Virus record (IMG/VR): IMGVR_UViG_2645727640_000044
Location: 1-31,891 of that record
Strand: one strand, 5' to 3'
Length of the DNA stretch: 31,891 nt
Source of the DNA: a virus
Lineage: Duplodnaviria > Heunggongvirae > Uroviricota > Caudoviricetes
Part shown: piece by piece, positions 1 through 16,845 of the stretch
Layout: each line of letters opens with the position of its first letter
Position numbering within the stretch: the first letter of the stretch is position 1
Position numbers and translations under genes: made by a program
The notes under the pieces: generated by a model
The model's input: only the letters and a program-made list of their open reading frames with translations
The model's database searches: none
What the model was told of the DNA's origin: nothing

Positions 1-3000
1 AATCCTGAGTTGGAACAATAACCGTTAGCCCTTCTTCAGCAGAAACCCGCACAGGAAAAGCCCTGCCTTCAACGTAAAAAACGCTGCATACATCATCTTC
101 TTTAAGGCTTGTTACAATGGAATGGATTGCGCGCTCATTAGTCTGATACGTCGAAAAATAACCTGCCGCATATGAACCACGATCAGTCCAGCCACCAGGC
201 ATTACCATTCCATTGAATTCGCAGTTATTCATTGCGTAATCACCACTGGCAGATGTGGTCGTTATAATCACTCTGGAAGCCAGCTCGCCAGTGCTGCCTG
301 TGGAACGCCGGAAAATAACTGGATACCACTTTCCACCAACTGCATTAGACGGCGCATTAAATGCGTACTGCCGCATTCCTTTTTTCTTATCCACTTCGCC
401 TTTGCTGTAAACATTAATGTTACTCAGGAAGCGATCTTTATCAGGAATATCCGCGCCGTTCTGGTTTTTTTGCAATGATCCAGCGGCTAATTCTACGGTT
501 TGCTCAAGATTTAAATCTTCCGCCGTTAGCTCAATATTTTTAGAACCATCAAACGAGACGCCGTTGATAGTACATGCTGTCTGCAACTTGGTCGCTGTCG
601 CTGCATTACCGGTTGTGTTCTGGTTACCAGCAATGTTTACACCCGGCAGGTTGATATCGGCAGAGCCATCAAACGCCACACCAGCAATTTTCCTTGCTGT
701 CTGCAATTTTGTGGCGGTTGCGGCATTACCAGTAGTGTTCTGATTACCAGTTGTATTCACACCAGGGATTGAATCCTTAGCGGTATATACCTGTGCCCAC
801 GCTGACCATGCTGCATCAGTGGTATCTCTTCGGGAGCGAATGAAAACCGGCGCATGTGCACCGCTCGTACCACTCCAGCCAATAAGCAACTCACCCTCGC
901 CAGCAGCACTCGCACCTTTCATGTGCAATACGTTGCCATACGTGGTCGGATAGCTATTGTTGTACGCCTCGTACATTTGAATGCCAGCAGTGCCTTGAGT
1001 AGAGCCGCTTAACGCCGTAACTCGGCCACGAGATACCAATGTATTAATGTTGATATCGCCTGAGCCATCAAACTTAACACCATTGATGTTTCTCGCTGTT
1101 TGCAACTTCGTAGCTGTTGAAGCATTACCGTTCAAACTACCATTTATGCCACCAGTAACATTTAGTCCATTACCAATAGACACAACACCGCTAGTATTAT
1201 TAATTGTAATCGGTCGCAAGCCGTTCCATGAACCTAACGTATCTCCTGATGCTGTTAGCATGAAATATGTGCTGCCGCCGTCATTACGGATAAAGAACCC
1301 AAAGCTACCGTAAGCAATGCGGAAACCATTTGCATATTTTGAAACGATCTCACCAGAAGATGTCAAACCTCCAGATAATGTACCACCGGTAAGAGGTAAT
1401 GCACCAACGTCAGATGCAGTTGGTTTGTTTTTCGTGTTATATACTCTTCGCCATCCTGGAGAATAATCTGTGCCATTAAATACATAGATAAACTCCGCAT
1501 TAGTGAGAGCACCGGAAACACTTGTCGTTGTGGCCGTTGTTATGCGGATCGTATAATTATTTGAACTACTACCGTTATTAAATACTTCTATAACAGCTCC
1601 TGCCAATGGAATAACGCCACAACCAGTTTCACTATTTGGTATGGTTGCGCTATTGGCATAGGCCCACGCACATCGAGCAATCCATGCCTTTGTGTTAAAG
1701 GCTCCATTATTTTGCAATAACGTCACTAACTGGGCTGTTGTTATTGCTCCGCCATTACTTCCTGTAGTTAACCAACCAGTAGGAGATGCCGGGCAACCTA
1801 TATTTGCTGGCGACAAGGAAATATTTGCCGAGCCGTCAAACGACACCCCATTGATAGTACGCGCAGTCTGCAACTTCGTAGCAGTAGCCGCATTACCTGT
1901 TGTATTCTGATTACCAGTCGTATTAACACCTGGCAAATTAATATTTGCAGTACCATCAAAGCTCACGCCGCCGATAGTTCTTGCCGTCTGTAGTTTTGTA
2001 GCAGTTGCGGCATTACCAGTGGTGTTCTGATTACCCGTAGTGTTTACACCTGGAAGATTAATATTGGCAGAACCGTCGAAACCAACTCCACCGATAGTTC
2101 TTGTCGTCTGTAATTTCGTTGCTGTACTTGCATTACCATTCAATGAACCAGTTAATCCGCCTGTAACAGACAACGGACCAGAAACTGTTCCTCCGGTTGT
2201 TGGCAGTGCTCCAATATCTGATGGCGTAGGTTTCTGATGTGAGCTATACATCGTATAAACAACACCATCGGTAACGCTGGCAGGCTTACTCGCTGAATAT
2301 GTTGGCGATGTATAAATAGAAACTGACGCATTTGCAGTACAATCCCAGTGGACATTTACACTCGTCGCATAATTGCCAATCTCAACATAAATATCATATG
2401 TATCGCCGGATGTATTCACCCATGCAAAATTAGTAAATCCAACCGATGTCCTTCGCCATAACGCACCAGTAAGACCTTTTGGATTTCCATTTCCCGCACG
2501 AAGAACAAGTTCAGATATACCAGCCTGCATAGGGGAGTTAACATTATATCCAGCACCACCAATCAATGTGATGTAAACGATGGAACTCGCTTGTGGCATG
2601 GTAACCGTAGCCAGTTTGAACCACCCAGCCCCGCCAGAGAAAGACATCGTTACTGAATTTAAAGTACCAATATCTTTCGGCGTTAATGTTATATCCGCAG
2701 TCAGTGCTTTTCCGTTAATTTTTCGGTTAGATGGCACCCTGCTATTCGCATTGTCATTGGCTGCTTTAACTGCTTTTGGCGTTGCGGCCAGCGATTCACT
2801 GGTGCTATCGACAGCACTGCTAAGTTTCACAACACCTTTAGTTGTAAGGCTTGCGTCTTCCATCGCAACTGCACCGGCAATCTCTTCAGCACGATCAGCA
2901 GCAGCTTCCGCACGGGTCGCAGCGGATTCAGCAGCAGTTTTGCTCTGAGATGCAGCCGTCGCACTGCCTGCCGCCTCTGTTGCTTTCGTGGATGCCGTTG

Positions 3001-4225
3001 AAGCACTGCCCTTCGCTTCTGATGCCTGCTTGGTCGCCTCATCTTTTGAAGCGGATGCTGAGGAGGCTGATGCAGACGCAGAACTTGCAGATTCAGCAGC
3101 TGCCGCCTTAGAGGAAGCAGCATTGTCTTCTGAAGTCTTTGCATTTGTTTCAGAGGTTTTTGCTGCCGATGCTGAATTTTTAGCAGCTGTAGCCTGACTC
3201 GTCGCCTCTGTCGCTTTTGTGGTAGCTGTTGTCGCTGATGACAATGCGCTATCCGCAGATTTTCCTGCCGCTGTTGCACTTGATGAAGCACTATCCGCAC
3301 TTGCTGAGGCTGCGCTTGCTGACGCTTCTGCCGCAGATTTCGAACTGTTTGCAGACGATGCACTCTGTTCGGCTGCCGTTTCAGATGCTTTTGCGTTTGC
3401 CTCTGACGTTTTTGCTGCCTTAGACGAATTTGCAGCTTCTGTTGCCGATGATGCTGCCGCGTTTGCGCTCGATGAAGCGTTAGTCTCTGATGCTTTGGCT
3501 GCATCCTTAGATGCAGAGGCACTGGACGCAGATGTTGCTGCCTCCGATGCTTTGGCCGACGCTACAGATGCTGATTCTGCTGCCGCTTCTTTTGCGGCTT
3601 GTGCGTTCGTTTCAGATTTTTTCGCAGCAGTTGCGCTCGCACTTGCAGCACTTTGTGAGGATGCCGCAGCGGATGCACTTTGAGACGCTTGAGAGGCTTT
3701 TTCTCCAGCGGTATTGGCGCTTTCTGCTGCTGCGGCAGCACTGGCCGCCGCCTCACGAGCTTTGTCGCCAGCAGCATCAATCGCGTCAGTGTTATTTTTA
3801 TACCACTCAACGTTTTCGTTGTGCTCGTTGACGATCTGCATTAGCGGCTTAACGGTCACTTCTGTACCGTCTTCACGCTCGATTGTCACCTCATCCAGAG
3901 CAGTCAACCAACTGCGCATGGACTTGGAATCAGCCGACATACGCGACATTAGTGCAGTAAAGCGCGCGCTAAACTGTGTTAAGTCGCCTTCATAGGTCGT
4001 AATGATTCGGCACGGAACTTCAGACTGAGTTTCGCCGGTATAAGGTTCTGAGAGAACAATGTTCGTATCACTGGTTACGCGCTTGATCTCATACAGCTTA
4101 TTGTCGGGGCCAATGACGATCATCCCCGGCAACACACCATTAGCTGTTACGTTCCAGGCTGTCCCTGCCCCAACCAGAGTATTGCTGCCCTGTGTAAATG
4201 TGATAGTACCTTCCCTGTACCACAT
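1..4225 (-). CDS. Side tail fiber protein, lambda Stf-like; 3' end lies beyond the window (C-terminus truncated)
   Basis: Minus-strand frame open from ATG at 4223..4225 (AAGGAG 11 nt upstream) to position 1; no complete minus ORF is listed here by the track, consistent with one uninterrupted frame. My translation begins MWYREGTITFTQGSNTLVGAGTAWNV, then an Ala/Ser/Lys/Glu low-complexity tract (KTSEANAKASETAAEQSASS...), then LSSAVDSTSESLAATPKAVKAA, which I recall as closely matching lambda Stf. Followed by at least five ~40-aa repeats of the phage tail-fibre repeat type (NTTGNQNTTGNAATATKLQTARTIGGVSFDGSANINLPGV). The plus-strand ORFs 417..4388 in the track are mirror frames of this gene. Confidence 0.8.
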   Translation of the reverse strand, partial: MWYREGTITFTQGSNTLVGAGTAWNVTANGVLPGMIVIGPDNKLYEIKRVTSDTNIVLSEPYTGETQSEVPCRIITTYEGDLTQFSARFTALMSRMSADSKSMRSWLTALDEVTIEREDGTEVTVKPLMQIVNEHNENVEWYKNNTDAIDAAGDKAREAAASAAAAAESANTAGEKASQASQSASAAASSQSAASASATAAKKSETNAQAAKEAAAESASVASAKASEAATSASSASASKDAAKASETNASSSANAAASSATEAANSSKAAKTSEANAKASETAAEQSASSANSSKSAAEASASAASASADSASSSATAAGKSADSALSSATTATTKATEATSQATAAKNSASAAKTSETNAKTSEDNAASSKAAAAESASSASASASSASASKDEATKQASEAKGSASTASTKATEAAGSATAASQSKTAAESAATRAEAAADRAEEIAGAVAMEDASLTTKGVVKLSSAVDSTSESLAATPKAVKAANDNANSRVPSNRKINGKALTADITLTPKDIGTLNSVTMSFSGGAGWFKLATVTMPQASSIVYITLIGGAGYNVNSPMQAGISELVLRAGNGNPKGLTGALWRRTSVGFTNFAWVNTSGDTYDIYVEIGNYATSVNVHWDCTANASVSIYTSPTYSASKPASVTDGVVYTMYSSHQKPTPSDIGALPTTGGTVSGPLSVTGGLTGSLNGNASTATKLQTTRTIGGVGFDGSANINLPGVNTTGNQNTTGNAATATKLQTARTIGGVSFDGTANINLPGVNTTGNQNTTGNAATATKLQTARTINGVSFDGSANISLSPANIGCPASPTGWLTTGSNGGAITTAQLVTLLQNNGAFNTKAWIARCAWAYANSATIPNSETGCGVIPLAGAVIEVFNNGSSSNNYTIRITTATTTSVSGALTNAEFIYVFNGTDYSPGWRRVYNTKNKPTASDVGALPLTGGTLSGGLTSSGEIVSKYANGFRIAYGSFGFFIRNDGGSTYFMLTASGDTLGSWNGLRPITINNTSGVVSIGNGLNVTGGINGSLNGNASTATKLQTARNINGVKFDGSGDININTLVSRGRVTALSGSTQGTAGIQMYEAYNNSYPTTYGNVLHMKGASAAGEGELLIGWSGTSGAHAPVFIRSRRDTTDAAWSAWAQVYTAKDSIPGVNTTGNQNTTGNAATATKLQTARKIAGVAFDGSADINLPGVNIAGNQNTTGNAATATKLQTACTINGVSFDGSKNIELTAEDLNLEQTVELAAGSLQKNQNGADIPDKDRFLSNINVYSKGEVDKKKGMRQYAFNAPSNAVGGKWYPVIFRRSTGSTGELASRVIITTTSASGDYAMNNCEFNGMVMPGGWTDRGSYAAGYFSTYQTNERAIHSIVTSLKEDDVCSVFYVEGRAFPVRVSAEEGLTVIVPTQD
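500..2160 (-). repeat. Tail-fibre-repeat coding units (about 120-nt period) inside the Stf-like gene
   Basis: Near-identical DNA blocks at about 545-775, 1050-1150 and 1830-2150 encoding ...GNAATATKLQTARTI.GV.FDGSANI.LPGV...; the plus-strand track ORFs ending ...AVCNFVAVAALPVVF are the antisense reading of these units. Confidence 0.7.
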
Positions 4226-4317: not shown

Positions 4318-7300
4318 TTACAGAAGGCCAATTCTTACTCGTAGGACGTTGTTATCGTCATAAACGTCAATCCGCTGACCATTTATGACCAGTCGCCCAT
4401 TGCCGCCGCTATTACCGTTGATCTCAAGCGTTCCATTTTTGCCGAATCGCCATCCAGATCTACCGCTAACAAAATTGGTAGATTGCAGATCGCCTACTTT
4501 TGCATTGGTGATTGTGCCATCCTTGATATACGCTCCATTCATATAGGCGATACTGTTTTCGATAACAAATGGCGTTGTGATCTTCCCGTTAACAGAGTTG
4601 ACCAAACCAAACCTGTCCGCCTGAACCAAAAACTGAGATAGCCCAGTGGTGTCAATACCAAGCGCAATACCGGCAACATACTTCTGCCCTCCGCTCGTTG
4701 AAGTCTCCATTTTCAACGTCCACGCGGTTGACACTTTTTTGTTGGTATCAGCAATAGCTGTTGCCTGCTGTTGAATTGTCGCGGTATTTCCATCCACCTC
4801 TGCTTTCAGAGTATCGATTCGCCCACTCAGAGCATTATCTGCCTGCGTTCTCGCTGTCGTTTCAGTTGTTACCGCCGCGGAAATGTTGGCTGCCGTTTGA
4901 GACTCTAAGTTTGTGATTTGAGTCGCCAATGCAGCATCTTGCTCTGTACGCGTTTTCGTTTCGGTTGCTACAGCCGCTTTAATATCCTCTTTGTATTGAG
5001 AGGTCAGCTTGGTGATCTGAGACGACAACGCCGAGTCAGCATCAGTTCGAGCCTGCGTTTCAACTGCAACGGCCGCACTAATATCTTTCGCTGTCTGTGC
5101 TTTTAAACTTGAAACCTCTTTTGTTAAAGCGGTATCACCATCAGCACGAGCCGTTGTTTCTCTGGCAAGAGATGCCTCGAGATCATTAGCTTTTGCTGTA
5201 AGAGACGAAATCTGAGTGGACAATGCACTATCGGCATCAGTCCTTGCCTTTGTCTCTACAGCAACCGCTGCGGCAATATCAGTTCCGGTTTGTGCTCGCA
5301 GGCTGTTAATTTCTCGTGAGAGCGCCTGGTCAGCACTTGCTCTGGCCTCCTGCTCCTGAGTGATGGCAGCGGATATATCACCGTCAACCTTTGACTGAAG
5401 CTGGTTTATTTGTTTGGCTAACGCAGAGTCCCCGCTTGCTCGGGCCTCCTGCTCACTACGTATTGCAGCAGAAATATCATCATCAACCTTTGCCTGAAGT
5501 TGGGTGATCTGGCTTGCCAGAGCCGAATCTTCCGTTGCTCGGGCTTCTTGCTCTTCCTTAATAGCTGCGACGATATCGTTGCTTACTTTCGACTCAAGCT
5601 GAGTGATCTGTGTCGTCAGAGCTTCATCGGCAGATGTACGAGCCTCCTGCTCTGTACTAATCGCCGCGCTGATATCTCCTTCAAACTTAGATTGCAGCTG
5701 AGTGACACGCTTTGCCAACGCTTCATCGCCATCGGCACGAGCGGTGGACTCTTCCAGAATACTGGCCTTAATGTCTTCGCCAATTTCTACGCGAATTTCC
5801 TCAACCTTCGTGGCCATTGCAGACATATCATCAGCAAAGGTTTTCTGTGTTGTTGCGATCTTCGCGTTATTGACCATCTGCTTGTGCTGGTCTTCATCTT
5901 GACGAAGAGCCAGGTCAATATTTGTTTTGGCCAAAGCCTCAATGTTCGTAGTCAGTTCTGCACTGGCACGATCGACCTCTGCAACCGTCTTTTTCATTTC
6001 TTCAACGGCAGCGGAGCTTTCCTCTACCGTTGACTGCAACACTTCCAGTTGTTTAGCGTTTGCAGCATCACCTTCAACACGAGCCTCGCTTTCCTTAGCA
6101 ATAAGAGCCGCCGCTTCATCTCTTGCAGCCTTTATTGCCTCGACTGTATTAGCGAGAGCTTTATCGTGTTCAGATACGGTATTTTCGATTTCAACAATTG
6201 CAGCATCAGTAGCATCAATTTTTTCAAACGCTTCATTGACCTTGTCGATCGTTGCCGAAACCTCACCTTTAAGCTCGGTTTGTGCGTTCTCCAAAGCATC
6301 GCTACGCTCGTTGAATTTTATTTCAAAATCCGCGAGGTTATCGCTGAACTGCTTATCTAATTCAGCTATATCTTCCTTAACGTCGTTTACCGCCCCCTCC
6401 AAAGATTCGACGCTCTGGTTGATATGCTCATTTAACTCGTCAACGGCTTCTTGAGAGGCTTTGCTGTTGATGTCCTCAAGCAGAGCCTGACCAAGCTCGG
6501 AAGATGTAATTTTGCCAGTCAGGAACGACAGTACATCGCGAGTTGTCGCCTCTGTACCCAAGTTTGAGTTCGGAGGACTTAACATACCTCGCTTGTTCGA
6601 TGCTCGAACCCAGTAATACCACGTTTCGCTATCCCCAAGACCAGCATGTGTAAAGGTGGTGCTTGCAGACTCTGCGATCAGTTTCGCCGTATCCAGATTA
6701 TTGGTCTGGGACGCGTAAACATTAATGTGATCAAGGTCTACCGAATCTGGATTAACCCAATTCAGTATCACATTACGATAGTCTCCAACGGCCGTTAATG
6801 ACGTTGGGGCATCTGGCGGTGTCATTGTGCCCAGCACCTGATAAACGGTACTGATAATCTCTGTTTTTTTACCGTTGAATGAAACCGCATACAGCTGGAA
6901 GTCGTAGCGTCCATTCTCCGCAACATTAACGATTTCGTATTGCTCTTCGGTTACACGCGCCGATTGCCAGTTCGATACATTGTTTTCATCAGAACGTCGC
7001 CAACTGATCCAATACTCTGGAGATTTCCCTTCCCATGTTGCAGTCAGTTTTACTGACAGGTTGCCAGGGCTTGAGAGATAAGTCCCTTCGGTGATTTGCA
7101 AATTAGACGGCTTGGAGTAAGTCGGGTCCAATACCGTCGTATTTTGCGGGATAAGCGTTGCACCATTGTCGATCGCCTCATATTTAGACGGATTGTTCTC
7201 AACAGCGGTGATGTCAAAGCTACCCGGCGTTTCCCCCTGCGCGATGTTAACGATGCGAACGCGCATAGGTTCGAGGTCTGGTTCTGTAATAGTCCAGACG

Positions 7301-9045
7301 CCGTTCAAAACAGGCGTTTCAGCCGAAGACAGGGCTTTTGAAAACGTAACTTTTGTTATATTTTCGCCAGTTTCAAGAACATCGCGTTCAACGATTTTGC
7401 CTTCCTGATTCAGTATTCGAATAAAGCAGCCGCCTTTGGCTAACGACACAGGCGCATCGAGTGTGACGCTGTTTTTGGTAAACGCCACAATTCGACCTGA
7501 GTTACGTTTGCCTGCGCGATATTTGTTCTGAATCAGAACGGTTTCACCAGGCATCAGAAATGACGCGTCTAAGCCGGCAGTAAATGTAATTACATCCGAC
7601 TCCATTCTGGCGGTATATAAAAGCCATAAACCAACTCGGTGAGCCTGCCCTCGGCTTGTACAGCCAAATGCTACGACTTCTGTCTTACGCTCACCATAAC
7701 GGCGCATTGCGTCCTGATCTTCAACGTACTCGATGTTTTGCTTATAACCGTCCTCCTTGTTGTTGTAGGTTACGAGCGCAACGGATGGGCGATCTTTACG
7801 CGCAGAACCTTTATAGGTAAACAATCCATCTTTGACGTTAGAGTTGGTAAACATCATTACCGGATCTGATGGGCTATCCTGCATGATGTTAACCATCCCA
7901 CCAGCCCAAAACACCATGCCGCGGAATGCTCCAGCAATATCCTGAATTAGCCGGTATGCGTCCTGTCGACTGGTGATCTGCGTATTGATTGCAAAGCGTT
8001 TCTCTTTGCCACCAAAGCCATCATCGACCTCTTCGTCACAATATCGACCAATCTGGTACAACTGGCCAAGGTCAATCATAGATTCCGACACATACTGACC
8101 AAGGCCATATCGAGCATTGGTCAGCAAATCAAAGAGAATCCACGCGGGGTTCGAAGAAGACAACAGCTTAAAAGTACCATCCCATACCCCAGCGTAAGTG
8201 TTACTTGACTCGTTATAGTTTGAAGGTACTCGAATTTTTAGGCCACGCACCAGATAAGAGCGAGATGGCATGGTGCTGCCGAATTGCTCAGAGTTTACCT
8301 TCAATCCAACCAAAACAGAGTTTGGATAGTTCATCGGTGTATCGACAATTTCCCCGATTGAATCCACCCATGTATCGTTATAGAGATACTGGCTACTGTT
8401 ATCATCGGTAATACGGACTACACGAACCTTGTATGCGCGTCCAGGCTTAGGCAGCTTCAGCTCGTAGCTACGGTAATAAACGCCGGTCTTCTTTGCTGTT
8501 AGCTTAATGCCAACGCTTTTTTCACCTTCCGCGACCACATCTACAAATGTTGAGTCGCCATTTGCTATCTGGAACTTGTACTCAACAGTCGTACCGTTCG
8601 TGTCACCAGTTTTTTTATCTATGCTTCGCAAAGAAGGAAACTTCATGATGACACGAACCCGATCAGCTTCATCGTTATCGATTGAAACCGTTACATAATG
8701 TGTTTTTTTTAACTGGATATTGACGGATTTAGGCGTTTCAACGAAATCAAAGCCAGACATTGGAGTCTGGTCTTGTGAACCGTCGCGAAAATCCCATGTG
8801 ATTCCGCTGAAGTTGGAGGAACCGTCTTCATTTACAATCGGCAGATCGTCGATAAAAATAGATCTTGTGCCATTTACTAAGCCGCCAATTACCCCTTCCC
8901 CAAGAAGATCGAGGATAGCGGCCATTGCACGAGAATTTACGGTATCGTCGGCTTCAACCGGTGTACGGCTGGAGCTTTTGCTGCTTTTTTTACCACCCGC
9001 ACCGGCAATAAACAGCGGTAGCTTTTTCTTCTTGAACTGTTCCAT
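4318..9045 (-). CDS. Central tail fiber / host specificity protein, lambda J-like (about 1575 aa)
   Basis: Track ORF 4318..9051 (1577 aa) starts on TTG; ATG at 9043..9045 has AAGGA 10 nt upstream. Size, position after the I-like gene, and an N-terminal region typical of J-family tip proteins. Contains a long coiled-coil stalk with ten 33-aa tandem repeats before a C-terminal domain of about 150 aa. Confidence 0.85.
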   Translation of the reverse strand: MEQFKKKKLPLFIAGAGGKKSSKSSSRTPVEADDTVNSRAMAAILDLLGEGVIGGLVNGTRSIFIDDLPIVNEDGSSNFSGITWDFRDGSQDQTPMSGFDFVETPKSVNIQLKKTHYVTVSIDNDEADRVRVIMKFPSLRSIDKKTGDTNGTTVEYKFQIANGDSTFVDVVAEGEKSVGIKLTAKKTGVYYRSYELKLPKPGRAYKVRVVRITDDNSSQYLYNDTWVDSIGEIVDTPMNYPNSVLVGLKVNSEQFGSTMPSRSYLVRGLKIRVPSNYNESSNTYAGVWDGTFKLLSSSNPAWILFDLLTNARYGLGQYVSESMIDLGQLYQIGRYCDEEVDDGFGGKEKRFAINTQITSRQDAYRLIQDIAGAFRGMVFWAGGMVNIMQDSPSDPVMMFTNSNVKDGLFTYKGSARKDRPSVALVTYNNKEDGYKQNIEYVEDQDAMRRYGERKTEVVAFGCTSRGQAHRVGLWLLYTARMESDVITFTAGLDASFLMPGETVLIQNKYRAGKRNSGRIVAFTKNSVTLDAPVSLAKGGCFIRILNQEGKIVERDVLETGENITKVTFSKALSSAETPVLNGVWTITEPDLEPMRVRIVNIAQGETPGSFDITAVENNPSKYEAIDNGATLIPQNTTVLDPTYSKPSNLQITEGTYLSSPGNLSVKLTATWEGKSPEYWISWRRSDENNVSNWQSARVTEEQYEIVNVAENGRYDFQLYAVSFNGKKTEIISTVYQVLGTMTPPDAPTSLTAVGDYRNVILNWVNPDSVDLDHINVYASQTNNLDTAKLIAESASTTFTHAGLGDSETWYYWVRASNKRGMLSPPNSNLGTEATTRDVLSFLTGKITSSELGQALLEDINSKASQEAVDELNEHINQSVESLEGAVNDVKEDIAELDKQFSDNLADFEIKFNERSDALENAQTELKGEVSATIDKVNEAFEKIDATDAAIVEIENTVSEHDKALANTVEAIKAARDEAAALIAKESEARVEGDAANAKQLEVLQSTVEESSAAVEEMKKTVAEVDRASAELTTNIEALAKTNIDLALRQDEDQHKQMVNNAKIATTQKTFADDMSAMATKVEEIRVEIGEDIKASILEESTARADGDEALAKRVTQLQSKFEGDISAAISTEQEARTSADEALTTQITQLESKVSNDIVAAIKEEQEARATEDSALASQITQLQAKVDDDISAAIRSEQEARASGDSALAKQINQLQSKVDGDISAAITQEQEARASADQALSREINSLRAQTGTDIAAAVAVETKARTDADSALSTQISSLTAKANDLEASLARETTARADGDTALTKEVSSLKAQTAKDISAAVAVETQARTDADSALSSQITKLTSQYKEDIKAAVATETKTRTEQDAALATQITNLESQTAANISAAVTTETTARTQADNALSGRIDTLKAEVDGNTATIQQQATAIADTNKKVSTAWTLKMETSTSGGQKYVAGIALGIDTTGLSQFLVQADRFGLVNSVNGKITTPFVIENSIAYMNGAYIKDGTITNAKVGDLQSTNFVSGRSGWRFGKNGTLEINGNSGGNGRLVINGQRIDVYDDNNVLRVRIGLL
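4765..5760 (-). repeat. About ten tandem 99-nt (33-aa) coding repeats inside the J-like gene
   Basis: Protein repeats of the form DISAAI.xEQEARAxxDxALxxQIxQLxSKVxx read directly from the translation; the DNA shows the same periodicity. Boundaries approximate. Confidence 0.7.
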
Positions 9046-9062
9046 GTTCAAAAAATCCTTGT

Positions 9063-9656
9063 TTACATTAGCTGGTCAATCGTGATTGAAGAACTCACAA
9101 CCTGTGAGCCAACCAGAATTTCCTCGCCATAGATAAGTTGTACTGGGTTGCCCTGGTTTTCTGTATTTTGAGGGCCGTCGAAATAATAAGAGTTCGAGTT
9201 ATCTGCCTGTCTCACACTTTCGTTAGTGGCTTGCGGCGATATGATTTGTGATATGCCGCCCATCATCAGTGACAAACCGAGAGGTGCTAAAGCAGGCATC
9301 ACTACCGCCGATACAACCAACAAAGCGGCCCCTACTACCGTCTGAAACCACCCAAAAGCAGATCCACCGCTTCCTCGCGGAACAGGTGTAATGCGGATTT
9401 TGGCAATGTTGTCAGACTGCCCCATCATCTGATATTCACTTTCGTCAACAGACCACTTGTGGCCCTGTTTATTGGTGATCTGGATGTGGTAACGGTCATA
9501 GGTTTTGATATTGCGCTTCATCCATGCTTTAAACCCAGGCTTGTTGGCCTCAATTAAATCCAGAGCCTGTTTTGTATTGCGCACCTTTAGATGCCAGTGG
9601 CGGCCAAAATGTTTGGCCATAGGGCCGCCAAGCTGCACATGAACTAACTCAGACAC
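9063..9656 (-). CDS. Tail assembly protein, lambda I-like
   Basis: 197-aa ORF in the position lambda I occupies (after K, before J); hydrophobic central segment GWFQTVVGAALLVVSAVVMPALAPLGLSLMMGG. Start is GTG at 9656 with AAGGGAG upstream; overlaps the K-like gene end by 13 nt. Confidence 0.75.
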   Translation of the reverse strand: MSELVHVQLGGPMAKHFGRHWHLKVRNTKQALDLIEANKPGFKAWMKRNIKTYDRYHIQITNKQGHKWSVDESEYQMMGQSDNIAKIRITPVPRGSGGSAFGWFQTVVGAALLVVSAVVMPALAPLGLSLMMGGISQIISPQATNESVRQADNSNSYYFDGPQNTENQGNPVQLIYGEEILVGSQVVSSSITIDQLM

Positions 9657-10441
9657 GTCTCATCTCCCTTGAGCAAGTCTCTGTGACGCAAGTGATGCGT
9701 CGTATGTTTCTGATACATTCCGCCGTAATAAGCACGACAACTAAGACGGTCGATCTGGTGATGAAGAATCATTCCATCGCCGATATAAACCGCGCAGTGA
9801 TCTGGCATTTTCCCGTATTGAATAAAGAAGACGTCCCCACGTTGAGGCTCTGTTCCAGGTGCAAGCCGTACCAATCCCTCGTTTCGGTAGTTCTGGTCGA
9901 GAATGTCGTTATCGCCGGTGTACCACGATGGAATATGCAGGTGTGCGTTCGGGTTAAGCTCGACGTTAAACTCACGCTTCAAATAGTCCCGACACAACAT
10001 CCAGCAATCGAATACGCCAAATACATACGGTCTACCCAGGTATGGCATTTCGAAACCATCAGGTGTGATCACATTCATCTCGCTAAAATGGAAAGGGGCA
10101 TCTCCCTCAACATTCTTGCGAATAGCCAGAATCATCCACGGAACTTCCGTCGCTTCACAGCCTGCACGATCGGCATCAGATGCTTCTGCTGATTCATCAG
10201 TATGTGAATGCCAGATTGCGATTACGTCACCTGCATCCTCTGCCGCCATAATGTCGTCAACGTGCATTACAAAAGTGTTCTGCGGGTTCTCCGAAACATT
10301 TCGCGCTTCCATAAAGCGATATTTGTCGCCATTAGTTCTCACCAGAAAGCCACACGCTTCATTAGGGTAGCGATTTATGGCGCAGAGATAGATTTGCTGC
10401 ATAACATCAGAGCCAAGCTCAGGGATTGCTTTATTACCCAT
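9644..10441 (-). CDS. Minor tail protein, lambda K-like (JAB/MPN + NlpC/P60 domains)
   Basis: JAMM-like motif IWHSHTDESAEASDAD (HxH...D) and an NlpC/P60-type Cys/His region (FDCWMLCRDY ... HHQ); ATG at 10441 with GGAG upstream. Track start 10468 is TTG. Confidence 0.85.
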   Translation of the reverse strand: MGNKAIPELGSDVMQQIYLCAINRYPNEACGFLVRTNGDKYRFMEARNVSENPQNTFVMHVDDIMAAEDAGDVIAIWHSHTDESAEASDADRAGCEATEVPWMILAIRKNVEGDAPFHFSEMNVITPDGFEMPYLGRPYVFGVFDCWMLCRDYLKREFNVELNPNAHLHIPSWYTGDNDILDQNYRNEGLVRLAPGTEPQRGDVFFIQYGKMPDHCAVYIGDGMILHHQIDRLSCRAYYGGMYQKHTTHHLRHRDLLKGDETCLS

Positions 10442-11132
10442 ATCGCGTAGCTCCAATAAACCCGCCAAAATGGATCACTCCGTTGGCAAAATAATTCCGA
10501 CGCGCATTACAGGCGTCATAACGTTTTGTGCAGTAATCAGCACCAGACATAGACGTCTGCTGGTTATTTTTGTCGAAATATGGACCGGTATAGCCGCATT
10601 CTGGCCCTCGGTATTTCCACGGGCAGGTGTTTTTAATGATCTGACGATACGGCAGTTGCACCCCCATCAAATCGAACACACTGGACAATTCAAACTCGAC
10701 AACCTGATGAGTTTCGAGAGTTTTCTGTTCGATAAACCACATTTCATCCGGGAAATGTTGGTTTGGATCTGCTGTTGGGTTGCCGTCTTTAAAATTAACG
10801 GCATCGAGGAAGCGAGCCAGCGTCATCTTGCGAATAATGCGGCAGCCAACAAGATCGTCGTTCGCCTGAACTTCCGCAGAGACGGTTCCGGCAAAGTTCG
10901 ATACCTGAATTTTTGGACGTGGCAACGTTCCCTGGCCAGTTTTGTCAAAGCCTGATGCTTTGATTGGCCACGGCTCGTATGTCACTCCTTGCCAGACGAC
11001 CGGTTGCATCAGTTCGTTTGTTCCGGCGTGGAAGAATAACTTCCCCCCTGAAGTTGTGTTCGACATATCCAGTACGAACAACTCAATGAGTGCAGAGGGA
11101 GATAAGCTCTGAATATCAGCTTTAATTCCCAT
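10434..11132 (-). CDS. Minor tail protein, lambda L-like
   Basis: Matches to lambda gpL as I recall it: VVWQGVTYEPWPIKASGF, RPKIQVSNF, ARFLDAVNFKDGNPTADP, NTCPWKYRGPECGYTGP, GVIHFGGF, including the conserved cysteines. ATG at 11132 has AAGGA 7 nt upstream; the track's longer ORF starts at ATG 11165 with a weak RBS. Confidence 0.85.
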   Translation of the reverse strand: MGIKADIQSLSPSALIELFVLDMSNTTSGGKLFFHAGTNELMQPVVWQGVTYEPWPIKASGFDKTGQGTLPRPKIQVSNFAGTVSAEVQANDDLVGCRIIRKMTLARFLDAVNFKDGNPTADPNQHFPDEMWFIEQKTLETHQVVEFELSSVFDLMGVQLPYRQIIKNTCPWKYRGPECGYTGPYFDKNNQQTSMSGADYCTKRYDACNARRNYFANGVIHFGGFIGATRYG

Positions 11133-11214
11133 TGTTTCATCCTTGAAATAAGTAGGCGCTAACATCCTGTCAGCGCCACAATGATAGTAAATTAGTACTT
11201 ACTTATCCAGATAC

Positions 11215-11550
11215 TTAAGCCTCAAATACTTGTCTGAATGTAGCAGTTAAGACACAGTACCCCTGATATCGCTTGACCGTATGACTGTCACATACAACTA
11301 CAATCCGTTTTCCTCTTGGATTAACCCAATAGAACGACTCAACGCCTGCTCGCTCAGTCAGGAAGTCATCGATTGCATTAATTTCGTTGTATGATCTGGT
11401 AAAGGTTAACGACCATTCTTCTTTAATACGATTAAGACCTTGAGCCTGTCGCTGCTCGTAGTCATCACCAAAATTAAGTACCGTTACATTCGGTTTTACG
11501 CTTTTTTCAGATTCGTAATCTGGATACCAATTAAACGTTTGTCTTTCCAT
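11215..11550 (-). CDS. Minor tail protein, lambda M-like
   Basis: 111-aa ORF between tape measure and the L-like gene, the size and position of lambda gpM; ATG with AAGGA upstream. Confidence 0.7.
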   Translation of the reverse strand: MERQTFNWYPDYESEKSVKPNVTVLNFGDDYEQRQAQGLNRIKEEWSLTFTRSYNEINAIDDFLTERAGVESFYWVNPRGKRIVVVCDSHTVKRYQGYCVLTATFRQVFEA

Positions 11551-11565
11551 CTCACATCCTTGTGA

Positions 11566-11587
11566 GACTGCCCCGGTCGGGGCAGTC
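11566..11587 (-). other. Hairpin between the tape measure stop and the M-like gene start
   Basis: GACTGCCCC-GGTC-GGGGCAGTC (9-bp stem) adjacent to a second small inverted repeat CTCACA/TGTGAG (11551..11566) that overlaps the M-like gene RBS. Confidence 0.3.
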
Positions 11588-11592
11588 GATAG

Positions 11593-14500
11593 TTAGTTAC
11601 GTTGAGTGTTTGGGTTGAGTGATCCGCCAGGGCGTTTCTCTTGAGCGATAGTCTCAAGCGCGATTGCTTTCATCCGTTGAGCGGCATTGTTCCATATGCT
11701 TTCTGTATCGCCGGATTCAGTTGTGCTACCGTCACTATGGACGTTGATCTCAATTGATACAGGAGAAAGAACATTTCCTCCTCCACTCATACCATCGGTA
11801 CTGAGCGTTACAGGGATTGTTCGACCATCAGGCAATGGAACATACGCCTCATTCATATCGCCTTCCCCAAACAACGCCAATTGAGGTGAGTTGGCGATAC
11901 CGCCTTTCTGGTATGCCCGGAGCGGGATCACGCCGTCTTTTCCGAATATGCCACCATTTGCAAACTTCGGAATTGCAGGAATACCATTCGTGCCATCGGC
12001 AGCAGAACTGGTCAGATTGTTGAACCCGGAAGTTGAGCCAGAAGAACCGGACATCAATCCATCGAATCCACCACCAGCCCATACTGAAACCAAACCAGAT
12101 GCAACTGTCGCGCCGAAATTCAACCACTTATTACCAGAGCCGGAAGCATTAGCTCCAAGCATTGCAAACGCGGCAGACAGAGCGCCGGTAACAGAGCTGA
12201 GGTTCTGCATCGAGAAGATGGAGTCCTTCACTGCTTTTGTCTCAGCATCTTTGGCTTCGGTGCTATTAAATAGCCCTGATACCCAGCTACCAATCGCATT
12301 TGTTGCTGTGCCAATTGCGCTGGTGGTCTGCTGTGTCGTTTGCCCCAATCCAGTTACCGAACTGGACGTCTCCTTCGTGGCTTCTCCTACCGACTTGTCG
12401 CCATTAACAGTGTTGCTTATGCGCACACCTTGATTGGCAACTGCGGAAGCAACCCCGGTGAGCAAATTACCACTCTGTGAACTACCAGCTGCGGTGGTTC
12501 CCATTCCCAACATGTTCATTAGAGGCAGCGTGATCTGCGACTTCACGACCATATTGGTGATATCTTTCAAAATGGACTGAGATAGGCTGGAGAAGCTCAT
12601 CTTCCCGTTAATAACGAAATCAGTCAGGACATCAGTTAAGCCACTAAACAAATCAGTCCAGGTGCTTTCGATCTGCTCTGCCAGGTTTTCGTATTCCAGT
12701 GCCAACTTCTGCGTCGCAGTCCCCGTCTCTTTAATAAGCGCGGTATTGCCAGCAGCAATCAGTTGATTGATTTTCTTTGTATAAAGCGCCACAACTTTAG
12801 GATCAGACGCCTTATCACGAAGTTCTATCAACGCTTTGAGATTGCGGTTGTAGGTGTCTTCGAAATCAGCAACTTTATCTTCGCGAGACGGCGTATAGCC
12901 AGCACTAATAATGGAATCCGACTCCGGTGCCCAGGTGGAGATCATCTGCTCAACATTGCGGCGATTAAACATCTCGCGATATTCAGGTGTCGCATTTTTG
13001 AGGTCTTCAAGACGTTTTTTCGCCCTGTCGATCATCTCTTGAGTGATGAACTCGTTAGGAACCGCATTAGCCAAATCTGTCAGCGATTTCGTTGTATCGC
13101 GAAGAGACTGATCAAACGATACCGTAGCCTTAGAGCTTTCACCCATTTGCCCCATAAGCTGATCGGCTTTGTCCAGAGCCTTCTGGTATCCGGCTGCCAG
13201 TTTCTGTTGCGCTGCCTGTTCCTTCTTGGCCGCACGCTGCGAGGCGTTAGCTGATCGTTGGGCTGCTTTCTCGGCAGCTGCTGCATCCTGTTCACGAGCT
13301 TTAGTCAGTGCAGCAATAGCTGCGGCACGCTCTTCATCGCTCATTTTCTCCAGAGAGCTGGCGCTGGATGCTTTCTGCAAATTAAGCTGCGTCTTGAGTT
13401 GTTTAGGCCCAATAATCGGCTTACCTTCGAAGTCCATCATCGGAGTGCCGTCAGGCAAAGTACGTTGATAAGTCGCAGAATCCATCTGGTTTCGCATATA
13501 TTGCGCCAGCGCCTTCTGAGCAGCTTTATCAGTTGTACCTAACCCAAGAACAGTCCCCTGGTTTGACATTACGCCCTTACCAGTTTTGGCCGCGTTATCT
13601 CTCTCGAACTCTGCCTGAGTCAGCTCCTGAGCAACGGCTTCCAAATGCTCCTGATAACCACGAATACTGCCTTGCAGTTTCTGGATCTGCTCGGTATTTC
13701 CATCCTTTTTGGCTTTTTCAAGCTGATCATTAAGAGTCGCAATTTGCTTCTCGGTCGCATTCTTACGAGAAGAAAGTGAATCAACCAGTTTTTGCGCAGG
13801 CTCCAGATAGCTTTTGTTTACCGTTTCACGTAACGGTGCCAATAGCTTGTTCTTTTCGTCATCTGAAAGTGAACCGTCATCATTGATTTTCTGGATCTTA
13901 TCCAGAGCCTCCTGCCGGGCTTTCACGAATGTTGCCGCAAAGTCTCTATTCTCTTCCCGTATTTTCTCTATCTGTGATTCTGCCGCATCTTTTGCAAGAC
14001 GTTTGGCTACAGCAATGTCTCCGCGTTCAATTGCCCCAGTAGTTTTATCGCGTTTCTTACGAAGGTCATTTAGCTCATTTTCTATACGCTTACGTTCATC
14101 CTGATTAATCTTTACTGTAGTTCCGGCCATACCCGGCCCATAAACCACCTTTTCGCCAGATTTTAACTCTTGTTCCTTTTGCGTGATTTGTTGCTCAAGA
14201 CGCGCTTTATACTCCGTCATCTGTGCACGTTTGGCCGCTGTCATCGCTTCTGGTATTTTCCTAATCTCGTCAACGACCTTTGAAGTTTCGCTGCGGAGCA
14301 TGGTCATGTACGTGATTAGGCCAGCAACAGCTACAGTGGCAACTGTAAATGCTGCCCCTATAGGGTTTGCTGCAATGAACGCCGTTAATCCAGCAAAAGC
14401 GCCTTTAAGCCCCGTAATCGCCCCACGGATGGCGAAAATAAGAGAGGGGATCGGAGCCAGCCCCATACGTGCCGCACGATTGAATCGGGTTACTGCTGTA

Positions 14501-16170
14501 GCGCCGAGGTTAAATGGAGTCTGTATGGCTGTCGCCATCGTGGCAAAGGTGCTAACCATCTGGCTGCCTGCGCCAACTACCCCCATGATCCCTGCTCGCA
14601 TCAGTTTGAACGCAACCATCGCGGCCACGACCTTACCGAGATTAATTACCAGCTCTTGGTTCTTTGCTAACCATTGAGCAAGCTGACGCAACCCATCGAT
14701 TGCCGTTGTTAACCCCGAACCTAAAGAATTGGCAAACGAAATCCCTTCGGCGCTATTCATGATTGAAGCCAGTTCTTTCATCCCCTTCGATAGAGAATCC
14801 AGATATCCGGCCTGACCAACCCGATCAGCAAATAACGTGAATGACGTCTGAAGTTGCGCCAGCGCACCTGTGTAGGTTTGCATCATGTCTTTCGCTGCGT
14901 TCTCATTCTCCGCACGCAGACCAACAAACATCAGAGACAACGCCTGTTTTGCCTCAACCGTACCGCTGGCAACGGCTTTAGTCAGTTCCCCCATAGTGAT
15001 GCCTGCGGCGTCTGCCATTGCCTGCATCGCGTTAGGAACGGCTTCACCTAATTGCTGACGTAGCTCTTCCATTGACACAACGCCCTTACCGGACATCTGC
15101 TGAACGGCCACAGCCGCACGTTTCAACAGCTCACTATCACCACCAAAACGAGCAACGGAGTCCACCAGCGCCTTCAGAGAACCATCGGTTGGATCTAAGC
15201 CAGCAGAACGAAACTTCACGAAGGAGTCTGTTAACGCCTGCATCGCGAACGGCGCATTTTGAGCCATGTCTACGATGTACTTCATATCATCAGCGGCAGC
15301 CTGGCCCGGGTTGGACTTCTCCTTATTCAACCCTCGAAGCATCACCCGCATACGTTCCATTTCGGCCGCAGCTTCAACAATAGGCTTCTGCCACCCAAAC
15401 ATGATGTCAGTAACCGTTCTGGCTGCATCTCCGATCTCGCCAAGCAGGAAAATGTTGCCACGAAGGCCAGAGAACATACCTCCTTCGTTACTTTTACCGC
15501 TATGGCCAGAAGCGCCGCTACGCCGCCCGCTACCACCATCGCCACTTCCAGATGTACGAACGCGTACCGGCTTGCTAATCAGTTGCTGACGTCCGATAAC
15601 TTCGTCCATCTGCTCACGAACCTTTTTCAGTCCCTCGGCAGCCTGACTCGTTGTGACACCCCAATTACTGAGTCGCTTCGTCGTGGTATTAAGGCGCGTA
15701 TTCATGCCACTCACGGACGCAGAGGCTTCTTTGACCTCCGTACCAAAGCGGCTTGCGCTTTTGCTTGCATAGGTCGCCCAATCAGAGAAATCATTTAGCT
15801 CTGATTGCACTTTACGTAATGACGCGGTGAGTTTATCTACTGAAGAAGTTGTCGTATCGACGCGCTCAATCAGGGCTTTAAGACCAGAATTGAGGCTGGT
15901 GATGTTGCCACGCATTTTACGCGTAGCATCTGAAGCAAGCTCAAAACCGGCAGCTACATCCTGTAGTTTATCTGCCGTAGAATCGAGCTTGCTTTCCAGA
16001 ACGCCAATGATACGGGCGACCGAACCCAAAGAGCGTTCAAAGGTTTGGATTTTTTGAGCAGGCTTTGTTACCTGCTCACCAAATCGAGTAAGCAGTTTCC
16101 CCGCACGATCGATTGACGCTGTAAACTGTTTGTCTTCCAGCGACAGGATAAACTCTACGTTTTGTGACAT
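11593..16170 (-). CDS. Tail length tape measure protein (about 1525 aa)
   Basis: Very long ORF immediately after the G/GT pair; extended helical, coiled-coil-like regions, Gly-rich tracts and hydrophobic segments. Track start 16191 is TTG; ATG at 16170 follows AAGGGA. Confidence 0.9.
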   Translation of the reverse strand: MSQNVEFILSLEDKQFTASIDRAGKLLTRFGEQVTKPAQKIQTFERSLGSVARIIGVLESKLDSTADKLQDVAAGFELASDATRKMRGNITSLNSGLKALIERVDTTTSSVDKLTASLRKVQSELNDFSDWATYASKSASRFGTEVKEASASVSGMNTRLNTTTKRLSNWGVTTSQAAEGLKKVREQMDEVIGRQQLISKPVRVRTSGSGDGGSGRRSGASGHSGKSNEGGMFSGLRGNIFLLGEIGDAARTVTDIMFGWQKPIVEAAAEMERMRVMLRGLNKEKSNPGQAAADDMKYIVDMAQNAPFAMQALTDSFVKFRSAGLDPTDGSLKALVDSVARFGGDSELLKRAAVAVQQMSGKGVVSMEELRQQLGEAVPNAMQAMADAAGITMGELTKAVASGTVEAKQALSLMFVGLRAENENAAKDMMQTYTGALAQLQTSFTLFADRVGQAGYLDSLSKGMKELASIMNSAEGISFANSLGSGLTTAIDGLRQLAQWLAKNQELVINLGKVVAAMVAFKLMRAGIMGVVGAGSQMVSTFATMATAIQTPFNLGATAVTRFNRAARMGLAPIPSLIFAIRGAITGLKGAFAGLTAFIAANPIGAAFTVATVAVAGLITYMTMLRSETSKVVDEIRKIPEAMTAAKRAQMTEYKARLEQQITQKEQELKSGEKVVYGPGMAGTTVKINQDERKRIENELNDLRKKRDKTTGAIERGDIAVAKRLAKDAAESQIEKIREENRDFAATFVKARQEALDKIQKINDDGSLSDDEKNKLLAPLRETVNKSYLEPAQKLVDSLSSRKNATEKQIATLNDQLEKAKKDGNTEQIQKLQGSIRGYQEHLEAVAQELTQAEFERDNAAKTGKGVMSNQGTVLGLGTTDKAAQKALAQYMRNQMDSATYQRTLPDGTPMMDFEGKPIIGPKQLKTQLNLQKASSASSLEKMSDEERAAAIAALTKAREQDAAAAEKAAQRSANASQRAAKKEQAAQQKLAAGYQKALDKADQLMGQMGESSKATVSFDQSLRDTTKSLTDLANAVPNEFITQEMIDRAKKRLEDLKNATPEYREMFNRRNVEQMISTWAPESDSIISAGYTPSREDKVADFEDTYNRNLKALIELRDKASDPKVVALYTKKINQLIAAGNTALIKETGTATQKLALEYENLAEQIESTWTDLFSGLTDVLTDFVINGKMSFSSLSQSILKDITNMVVKSQITLPLMNMLGMGTTAAGSSQSGNLLTGVASAVANQGVRISNTVNGDKSVGEATKETSSSVTGLGQTTQQTTSAIGTATNAIGSWVSGLFNSTEAKDAETKAVKDSIFSMQNLSSVTGALSAAFAMLGANASGSGNKWLNFGATVASGLVSVWAGGGFDGLMSGSSGSTSGFNNLTSSAADGTNGIPAIPKFANGGIFGKDGVIPLRAYQKGGIANSPQLALFGEGDMNEAYVPLPDGRTIPVTLSTDGMSGGGNVLSPVSIEINVHSDGSTTESGDTESIWNNAAQRMKAIALETIAQEKRPGGSLNPNTQRN

Positions 16171-16177
16171 TCCCTTG

Positions 16178-16845
16178 TCATCCTCTGCCAAATATTTGCA
16201 TCAGTTGCTCTTTGGCGTCAGGGTCTGCCTTATCCTGGCTTGGATCGTAGACTTTATCTGTTACGACTGGTCTTCCAATCCTGAGTTGCAAACCCTCCAT
16301 GAACGCCTTCACAGCCTCGCCATCCGCCTGGGACGCACGAGCGACTTGTAAGTTGCGGACATCCTCTTCCGCACGCAGACGGTCTATATTGCGACTGAGC
16401 ATCCAGAACATCGTGAGAGGAACGTTCAGTAGCTCTAATGGCGACACGGCGTAGTGAGCAACTACACGACTGAAATAGAATCCGAGATCTATTGAGACGG
16501 TCCTTGTCCCGGATTCATCGCGGGAAATTACTTTGCCCCTTCGCCAGCCGCTTTTTCGTTTTCTTCATCAATCACTTCCATAGCGAAGGTGAAGATCTGC
16601 TGGAGTTGCGGAACAGTCAGTTTTTCAAGAACTTCATCAGGCACTGAAGGGATAACCTTACGAACCAGATCTGCATAAGCTGTCACTTGCTCAACAGGAG
16701 ACATGTTCATGAGATCTTTGCCTTCCATCTGCTTGATGGAAACGAACAAACCTACCGTCATTTCAACGATGGGATATTCCTGACCGCCAAATTTGATGCT
16801 TTTCTTCGGAGGCAGAATGGAATCGAGATCGAGTAATTTGGTCAT
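16178..16845 (-). CDS. Tail assembly chaperone GT-like fusion via putative -1 programmed frameshift
   Basis: The frame of track ORF 16178..16447 is -1 relative to the G-like frame (codon phase checked) and stays open upstream into the 3' end of the G-like gene. Candidate slip sites are GAAAAAG (16551..16557) or Lys AAG at the stop, ..GCAAAGTAA (16528..16536). Neither is a canonical XXXYYYZ heptamer. Confidence 0.5.
16528..16845 (-). CDS. Tail assembly chaperone, lambda G-like
   Basis: 105-aa ORF between the major tail and tape measure genes; ATG with AAGGA upstream; a -1 frame ORF follows. Confidence 0.7.
   Translation of the reverse strand: MTKLLDLDSILPPKKSIKFGGQEYPIVEMTVGLFVSIKQMEGKDLMNMSPVEQVTAYADLVRKVIPSVPDEVLEKLTVPQLQQIFTFAMEVIDEENEKAAGEGAK

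Follow-up and report, generated by a model that had tools for sequence, protein, structure and literature searches.

Ten tandem units in the helical shaft of a lambda-J-like central tail fiber and their likeness to the fold-switching shaft of F-type pyocins

The gene studied here encodes the J-like central tail fiber protein of a tailed phage (Caudoviricetes), found on a stretch of 31,891 nucleotides (IMG/VR virus record IMGVR_UViG_2645727640_000044, positions 1 to 31,891) that is referred to as the window herein. Between hub and C-terminal tip, this protein bears a long helical shaft whose distal portion is an array of ten tandem units, homologous to the shaft of F-type pyocins and carrying its fold-switch motif in every unit. 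As a joint explanation, we consider it probable that the protein has an expanded lambda-J-like shaft that acts like the fold-switching shaft of F-type pyocins.

Results

A regular array of ten units in the J-like protein

ORF listing and translation place the J-like central tail fiber (tip attachment) gene on the minus strand at 4318..9045, encoding 1575 amino acids plus stop. Its open reading frame (ORF) spans 4318..9051 on that strand, with the Met start at 9045 and the stop codon at 4318-4320. Residue positions follow ORF numbering (L1 = 9049-9051); Pfam positions count from Met and become ORF numbers upon adding 2.

An initial annotation of this DNA had described ten 33-residue tandem repeats at 4765-5760. 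Profile hidden Markov model (HMM) and lag-33 identity analyses confirmed ten tandem units and delimited the array to 4789..5775 (minus strand, aa 1093-1421). This is the same array as first described, with a frame that had been set 5 residues out of phase and had overshot by 8 residues; the count of ten stands, but the uniform length does not, as nine units have 33 residues and one has 32. Reading from the N terminus, and all on the minus strand, the units are r1 at 5677-5775 (starting at aa 1093), r2 at 5578-5676 (aa 1126), r3 at 5479-5577 (aa 1159), r4 at 5380-5478 (aa 1192), r5 at 5281-5379 (aa 1225), r6 at 5185-5280 (aa 1258-1289, the sole 32-residue unit), r7 at 5086-5184 (aa 1290), r8 at 4987-5085 (aa 1323), r9 at 4888-4986 (aa 1356), and r10 at 4789-4887 (starting at aa 1389 and ending at aa 1421). 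Amino acid identity at lag 33 within the array is 0.49, whereas the maximum at any lag in 2000 shuffles was 0.19, and all ten were recovered with E = 1e-16 to 1e-21 by a profile HMM trained on them.

The computed unit consensus, DISAAIxxETxARAxADxALxxQITxLxSKxxx, matches the one proposed initially. Although pairwise protein identity between units ranges from 30 to 73%, positions I2, A4, A/S5, I/V/L6, E9, A/T12, R13, a small residue at 14, D17, A19, L20, a small residue at 21, I/V24, L27, and a small residue at 29 are invariant. Per unit there are about nine core positions (period 3.65), consisting of I2, I6, L20, I24, L27, and V31 together with a buried charged ladder of E9-R13-D17. The units fall into two sub-families, r1-r5 (EQEARA type) and r6-r10 (ETxART type), and the 32-residue r6 comes straight after the array's only predicted helix break, TGTD (aa 1255-1258, at the r5/r6 junction). 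One further, degenerate copy stands alone 111 residues upstream of the array at 6022..6108 (minus strand, aa 982-1010; HMM E = 1.9e-6); homologs from Salmonella, E. coli, and Photorhabdus also have an isolated copy 112 residues ahead of the array. A 165-residue super-period, as would arise from duplication of a five-unit block, was rejected because identity at lag 165 showed no excess beyond the decay of the 33-residue periodicity.

The pyocin fold-switch motif recurs in every unit

In a phmmer comparison of aa 1051-1577 with the F2-pyocin fiber (25vf_A), aa 1244-1549 aligned with residues 884-1193, covering shaft and tip (E = 4.3e-25). The shafts of the F2 (PMC13455828) and PAO1 (10.64898/2026.02.24.707460) pyocins have been solved as trimeric coiled coils, and the coiled coil is the pre-ejection state solved in three F-type pyocins. 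Both fibers end in a lambda-type distal prism without a receptor-binding domain (PMC13455828; 10.64898/2026.02.24.707460). He et al. 2026 (PMC12874032) reported that the F-type pyocin shaft can refold into a beta-prism, which opens the tail tip, and that Small-to-Gln substitutions that block the prism abolish pyocin killing. The pyocin strands bear the motif SxSxxMxxLxS, forward or reversed according to how the strand runs, and where M is acidic it has an Arg partner at i+/-4 (He et al., PMC12874032).

Using a relaxed form of this motif (S = A/S/T/V, L = L/I/V, and M = L/I/V/K/R/D/E), we found 26 forward or reversed matches in the array versus 4.8 +/- 2.1 in shuffles (maximum of 13 in 1000). 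Every one of the ten units has the motif twice, reversed at positions 4-14 and forward at 19-29, and the invariant E9, R13, and D17 fit the Arg-acid pairs of He et al. at M positions. The motif was not enriched in the body, in the tip, or in the N-terminal part of the shaft, where 6 matches were found versus 2.6 expected. In AlphaFold2 (AF2) models, beta strands begin at aa 1414, right after r10, so that the position of a permanent beta-prism "seed" is filled; the end of r10 itself is placed in a strand.

The likeness to F-type pyocins extends over the whole protein: both have a J-like hub, two FNIII domains, a long helical shaft, and a lambda-type prism without a receptor-binding domain, and both share the SxSxxMxxLxS motif, the Arg-acid i+/-4 pairs, and a helix-breaking acidic segment in the shaft. 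They differ in that the pyocin shaft has ~165-180 residues versus ~590 in the window J, whose switching-type part is a regular ten-unit array of 33-residue units. Units of 33 residues are mentioned in none of the three pyocin papers, and the word "repeat" was not found in the text of He et al. Furthermore, the window comes from a phage-plasmid of Enterobacteria and not from a tailocin, and in its J protein switching and side-fiber docking on the shaft are putative.

The periodicity is kept in protein and hardly visible in DNA

Analysis of the DNA by Tandem Repeats Finder (TRF) returned only 2.2 copies (5336-5553, 76% matches). Nucleotide identity between units is 46-69%, and the longest exact word in common is 12 nt. 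At residues common to two units, the codon is shared in 34.5% of cases versus 34.4% expected from codon usage; synonymous sites between units are saturated, and the units of the window allele are old. Because codon sharing between units equals the expectation from codon usage, the periodicity is taken to be kept by selection on the protein. The age and divergence of the units in DNA also imply that recombination within the window allele should be rare. We therefore dropped frequent slippage or RecA-type recombination in this allele, and since the units are hardly repeats in DNA, length changes are better seen as occasional events at short homology. The expectation that 99-nt DNA repeats would be prone to length variation was thus half right, in that number varies by whole units from 4 to 10 among relatives but the units are barely DNA repeats.

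Layout of the helical shaft

The shaft begins with an N-terminal, non-repetitive portion (5776..6564, minus strand, aa 830-1092), which is proline-free and has a hydrophobic period of 3.55. Proline is absent across the whole of aa 830-1421 (592 residues). From the N-terminal part to the array, alanine content rises from 15% to 20% and acidic content falls from 22% to 17%. The hydrophobic period is 3.55 in the N-terminal part (measured over aa 850-1092) and 3.65 (= 33/9) in the array, both several-fold above shuffles. The canonical heptad period of 3.5 was not found in the array, which has nine core positions per 33 residues and is hendecad-like; the heptad-like portion of the shaft is the N-terminal part only, as seen from its period and from a 7-residue indel between alleles. 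In the array spectrum, the 3.65 peak has a power of 5.8 and a 16.5-residue peak has a power of 1.2.

Two AF2 monomer models, built on alignments of 29 and 102 sequences (mean pLDDT of 75.6 and 76.4), agree in layout, with FN3 strands reaching to near aa 836, followed by helices at 840-1041, 1053-1254, and 1259-1409, and beta strands thereafter. In finer detail, helices in the N-terminal part cover aa 840-850, 852-864, 867-1041, and 1053-1129, while those of the array cover aa 1094-1254 and 1259-1409 with pLDDT of 70-88 (102-sequence alignment). The helices are broken at aa 1042-1052 (pLDDT <50) and at the TGTD segment. A helical shaft of ~590 residues between the FNIII domains and the C-terminal beta-prism is strongly supported, in agreement with the long coiled-coil-like stalk first described between the body and a C-terminal domain of ~150 residues. 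Its coiled-coil character is supported by the lack of proline, the hydrophobic periodicity, the AF2 helices, and homology to the trimeric coiled-coil shaft of the F2 pyocin. By analogy with all solved homologs, there is strong support for three copies of the protein forming the tail tip. At ~4.9 nm of helix per unit, the array would measure ~49 nm and the entire shaft ~85 nm.

At the predicted helix break within the N-terminal part lies an invariant acidic island, TNIDLALRQDEDQHK (5881..5925, minus strand, aa 1043-1057), a candidate docking kink. It is 100% identical in 120 relatives, although the shaft around it is the most variable part of the protein. On pyocin shafts, side fibers attach at an acidic kink (He et al., PMC12874032), and by analogy, this island may be a docking kink for the side fibers. 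The N terminus of the side fiber is conserved, but Ur-lambda side fibers are attached via a collar on the tail, so that docking on the J shaft is a lead only.

The shaft is an expansion of an element present in lambda J

The hub body, including the FNIII domains, spans 6565..9045 (minus strand, aa 3-829), as seen from alignment to lambda J and to the F2-pyocin fiber. By phmmer, the body matched residues 3-837 of lambda J (8iyk, E = 2.6e-124) and residues 7-843 of the F2-pyocin fiber (25vf, E = 1e-154). The start of the shaft, LSFLTGKITSSELGQALLEDI (6469..6531, minus strand, aa 841-861), aligned by BLASTP with lambda J residues 815-835 at 57% identity, and aa 1422-1510 aligned with lambda J 841-931. 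Hence, 560 residues in the window J occupy the place of 5 residues in lambda J. The initial annotation had described lambda J as having no such stalk. This holds for a stalk of that size, but a homologous, alpha-helical shaft of ~50 residues (approximately 809-861) is present in lambda J between FNIII-2 and the central-straight-fiber beta-prism (Ge and Wang, PMC11101478), and part of it becomes beta strands upon LamB binding (PMC11101478). Since the lambda shaft is at the homologous place, the window shaft is an expansion of an existing element rather than a new insertion.

The C-terminal beta-prism tip (4321..4788, minus strand, aa 1422-1577) was identified by PF09327, by a phmmer match to lambda J 839-971, and by Foldseek. 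When the modelled tip was searched by Foldseek, the hits were lambda 8xcj (6.9e-7) and 8xci as well as SU10 7z4b, and the strand spacing in the AF2 model of the tip is ~17 residues. Judged from its sequence and its model, the C-terminal ~150 residues are the lambda central-straight-fiber prism (PF09327). A counterpart to the Ig-like receptor-binding domain of lambda (~985-1132) was not found: the window J ends 18 residues past PF09327 and gave no significant alignment to lambda J beyond residue 971. Consistent with this, the NCBIfam model lambda_TipJ gave a score of 527, below its cut-off of 1950. The tip is 94-100% identical among the 120 relatives, which come from several hosts, while the stalk is the variable part; such near-invariance argues against the tip as a specificity determinant. 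The receptor-binding role first presumed for the C-terminal domain is thus unsupported by sequence. Compared with lambda gpJ (8iyk, 8xcj), the window J has a homologous hub, FNIII domains, shaft start, and central-straight-fiber beta-prism in a gene order of M-L-K-I-J; the differences are the shaft, ~50 residues in lambda and ~590 in the window, and the C-terminal Ig-like LamB-binding domain, which lambda has and the window J lacks.

Unit number varies by whole units among relatives

A comparison of repeat number among related phages, as proposed with the initial annotation, was made on the 120 best protein-database clusters, all at least 81% identical, from a search that gave roughly 4400 homologs. 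Classes of 4, 5, 6, 7, 8, 9, and 10 units were found, always in whole units, with 5 units being the commonest (95 clusters); the window allele is in the longest class seen in the SSU5-like group. In a six-way alignment, the window, Cyrano, and both CMS-2020a records had 10 units, PhiR41_1 had 9 (an exact 33-residue gap), and SSU5 had 5 (gaps of 66 and 98 residues). When mapped onto r1-r10, the alleles miss differing internal blocks (r3-r4, r2-r3, or r2-r4), and gaps are always whole units. These sequence comparisons strongly support repeated changes of unit number in the SSU5-like lineage by loss or gain of whole units.

The clearest single case is PhiR41_1 versus CMS-2020a (SCU-175), which differ by a clean 99-nt indel with flanks identical at 251 of 252 positions. 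Its junction lies in GA(T/C)ATATC(T/A)GCTGCTATTAA, which holds an 11-nt exact match (microhomology), suggesting that the event was recent and took place at short homology. In the few phages that are annotated, stalk length showed no simple relation to side-fiber length (9 units and 597 residues in PhiR41_1, 5 and 1260 in SSU5, and 10 and 1341 in Cyrano), and we set aside the idea that one tracks the other.

Other differences were seen in the N-terminal part of the shaft and beyond. The residues AVNDVKE (aa 886-892, window ~6376-6396) are missing from CMS-2020a (SCU-175) and PhiR41_1, an indel of 7 residues or one heptad, and SSU5 is without 25 residues near the same place. For the Klebsiella SSU5-like phage-plasmids L007 and L008, the DNA match covers only the N-terminal 55% of J, and no intact J ORF of at least 900 residues was found in the stretches examined; in both, the distal portion of J seems to have undergone replacement or disruption.

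The array belongs to a widespread family of fibers

Searching with the array, we obtained matches to 1829 clusters of 50% identity at E <= 1e-3, of which 112 were at E <= 1e-30. In a sample of homologs, fibers with a PF09327 tip usually have 3-7 units (mode of 5) at a spacing of 32-33 residues. We had considered ten units to be rare, but this was rejected, as the 50%-identity library has arrays of 20-24 units. He et al. (PMC12874032) found a long shaft in 24 of 120 siphophages and predicted 21 of 24 phage fibers to switch. The stalk is therefore not universal among J homologs, yet it is widespread. At the same time, the 33-residue unit is no catalogued family in Pfam or NCBIfam: Pfam assigned no domain in J from about aa 830 to 1420, and the stalk alone, searched against Pfam and NCBIfam, matched nothing but generic helical families (SF-assemblin, ApoLp-III), and these below threshold.

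Two other known fibers resemble the window J. The T1 fiber gp33 (9l9p) has near-identical 33-residue units, DDIQASLTDIREVIATETEALSREIDQLKAQIG, ahead of the same tip domain (phmmer E = 7e-30); its C terminus was not resolved by cryo-EM and is predicted to form a protrusion of ~37 nm (PMC11945409). Other T1-like or HK-type lambdoid central fibers share this unit type; T1-like fibers have fewer units than the window J, and the T1 units are nearly identical to one another, whereas those of the window are strongly diverged. The fiber of the Pseudomonas podophage DEV (9ze4) likewise has this kind of unit ahead of the same tip domain (E = 8e-18). It differs in being a stand-alone protein of 429 residues in an N4-like podovirus, with no fused J hub.

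Gene context and the neighboring side-fiber gene

By sequence, the J gene is assigned to a lambda-J-like central tail fiber protein of an SSU5-like phage-plasmid. It has 99.2% nucleotide identity to CYRAN_20 ("tail host specificity protein J") of Escherichia phage Cyrano; farther relatives over J are Salmonella phage SSU5 and E. coli and Klebsiella phage-plasmids. The order annotated in Cyrano is TMP, M, L, K, I, J, and the counterpart ORFs lie at 9063-16191 in the window. Pfam domains on J (Met numbering) are FNIII-A_GpJ at aa 102-236 (E = 1.5e-29), Phage-tail_3 at aa 358-521 (E = 7e-34), fn3 at aa 745-824, and Phage_Tail_Tip PF09327 at aa 1423-1557 (E = 1.4e-41, profile positions 1-138 of 139). 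The portion of the hub that was profiled (aa 803-847) is at least 98% identical in the 120 relatives. ORFs antisense to the array (e.g., 5500-6033, plus strand) show no sign of being genes, and a literature search on the SSU5 tail fiber returned no work on the J stalk.

Following J is a side tail fiber gene of which only part is present, as the window starts within it (2..4225, minus strand, open frame of at least 1408 residues). Its first 100 residues are identical to CYRAN_21 of Cyrano ("tail fiber protein, P1 S homolog"), and Pfam detected Gp34_trimer at aa 907-1008. SSU5, PhiR41_1, and Cyrano have the N-terminal ~65 residues in conserved form, whereas the distal parts differ greatly in length (fibers of 597 to 1341 residues). 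A conserved N terminus with differing distal parts suggests that a common module serves for attachment and that the specificity parts have been swapped. This gene has repeats of its own: a 120-nt tandem repeat at 1866-2138 (2.3 copies, 78% matches) that encodes 40-residue units, NTTGNAATATKLQTARTIGGVSFDGTANINLPGVNTTGNQ, and short 21-nt repeats at 2884-2933 and 3123-3163.

Discussion

The pyocin homology and the motif in every unit lead us to propose how the shaft might work. Before cell contact, the array would be held as a metastable trimeric coiled coil. Once the fiber engages the cell, the array would refold into a triangular beta-prism, starting at the permanent C-terminal prism, and this refolding would shorten the ~49 nm helix several-fold and draw the tail tip to the membrane. 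The tip would then open, releasing the tape-measure protein and DNA. The N-terminal part of the shaft might serve as a spacer or "spine," and unit number would set both the reach of the fiber and the size of the conformational stroke. Going by sequence and by analogy to the pyocin, we regard it as evenly balanced whether the array is metastable in this way and zips from a coiled coil into a beta-prism, beginning at a C-terminal seed. More tentatively, and with doubt exceeding confidence, each 33-residue unit could be one beta-hairpin module, such that phages tune stroke length or stored energy by whole modules. This suggestion stems from the presence of the motif in both orientations, the 16.5-residue peak, and the ~17-residue strand spacing in the modelled tip.

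Several points weigh against a fold switch in this fiber. The AF2 monomer models are helical only, leaving the prism state to sequence motifs and homology, and the key mechanistic paper (He et al.) is a 2026 preprint on a pyocin and not on a phage. Lambda and T5 use no large fold switch (He et al., PMC12874032). Within the window, the 263-residue N-terminal part of the stalk lacks motif enrichment, and small genes of the PyoF11/F12 type, which follow the pyocin fiber gene, were not found after J: the gap from J to the side-fiber gene is just 92 nt, and there is no minus-strand ORF between the J stop and the side-fiber start at 4225. The conserved small residues lie beside the trimeric core, and helix packing by itself could also account for them. 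As for the hairpin-per-unit model, it is inferred from motif positions and the 16.5-residue peak, not from coordinates.

Some of these points would equally suit a static trimeric coiled-coil rod that never switches, in which unit number only tunes reach (e.g., through O-antigen or capsule). Helices-only models and the ability of lambda and T5 to do without a long switching shaft are as expected for such a rod, as are the tolerance of whole-unit changes from 4 to 10 among near-identical phages and the status of the stalk as the most variable part of the protein, in keeping with relaxed surface positions. Against a rod, seven small positions per unit and the E9-R13-D17 ladder are invariant across units with saturated synonymous sites, and they fall on the F7 fold-switch motif in its forward and its reversed form. 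Given, in addition, that the array is homologous to a shaft shown to switch, we consider a passive spacer unlikely. The opposite idea, that the array is already a prism or beta-helix in the virion and its helical signal only latent, draws on the same alternating motif twice per unit, on the 16.5-residue peak, and on the strand that AF2 places at the end of r10. Additionally, AlphaFold3 (AF3) gives a beta-prism for 30% of related phage fibers, some of which are 50-80% identical to fibers predicted as coiled coils (He et al., PMC12874032). Nonetheless, the 102-sequence AF2 model has well-scored helices across the array, the 3.65 period dominates the spectrum, and the pre-ejection state of three F-type pyocins is a coiled coil; a resting prism is thus quite improbable in our judgment. 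The least credible of these alternatives is that unit number drifts by occasional recombination without functional effect in what is a generic linker. The coexistence of many length classes and an indel junction at microhomology are compatible with drift, but indels are always in register and of whole units, the old units are under strong constraint at the protein level, and arrays of the same unit have been kept across the 1829 protein clusters. We hold it to be very improbable.

We therefore continue to favor an expanded shaft that switches its fold as in F-type pyocins. The novelty is modest, as the stalk of the window belongs to a recently described and widespread family; what it adds is a regular unit structure that matches the fold-switch motif and a natural series of copy number. 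One consequence concerns annotation, where the C-terminal domain of such J proteins has habitually been taken as a receptor binder, a habit that our analysis corrects. The source of the energy with which non-contractile tails breach the envelope is a long-standing question. Here, a pyocin-type element is present in a widespread family of enterobacterial phage-plasmids as a countable array of 4-10 units, with hub and tip near-identical. If the units are indeed hairpin modules, the SSU5-like series of 4-10 units would allow a direct test, in a phage, of the fold-switch model drawn from pyocins.

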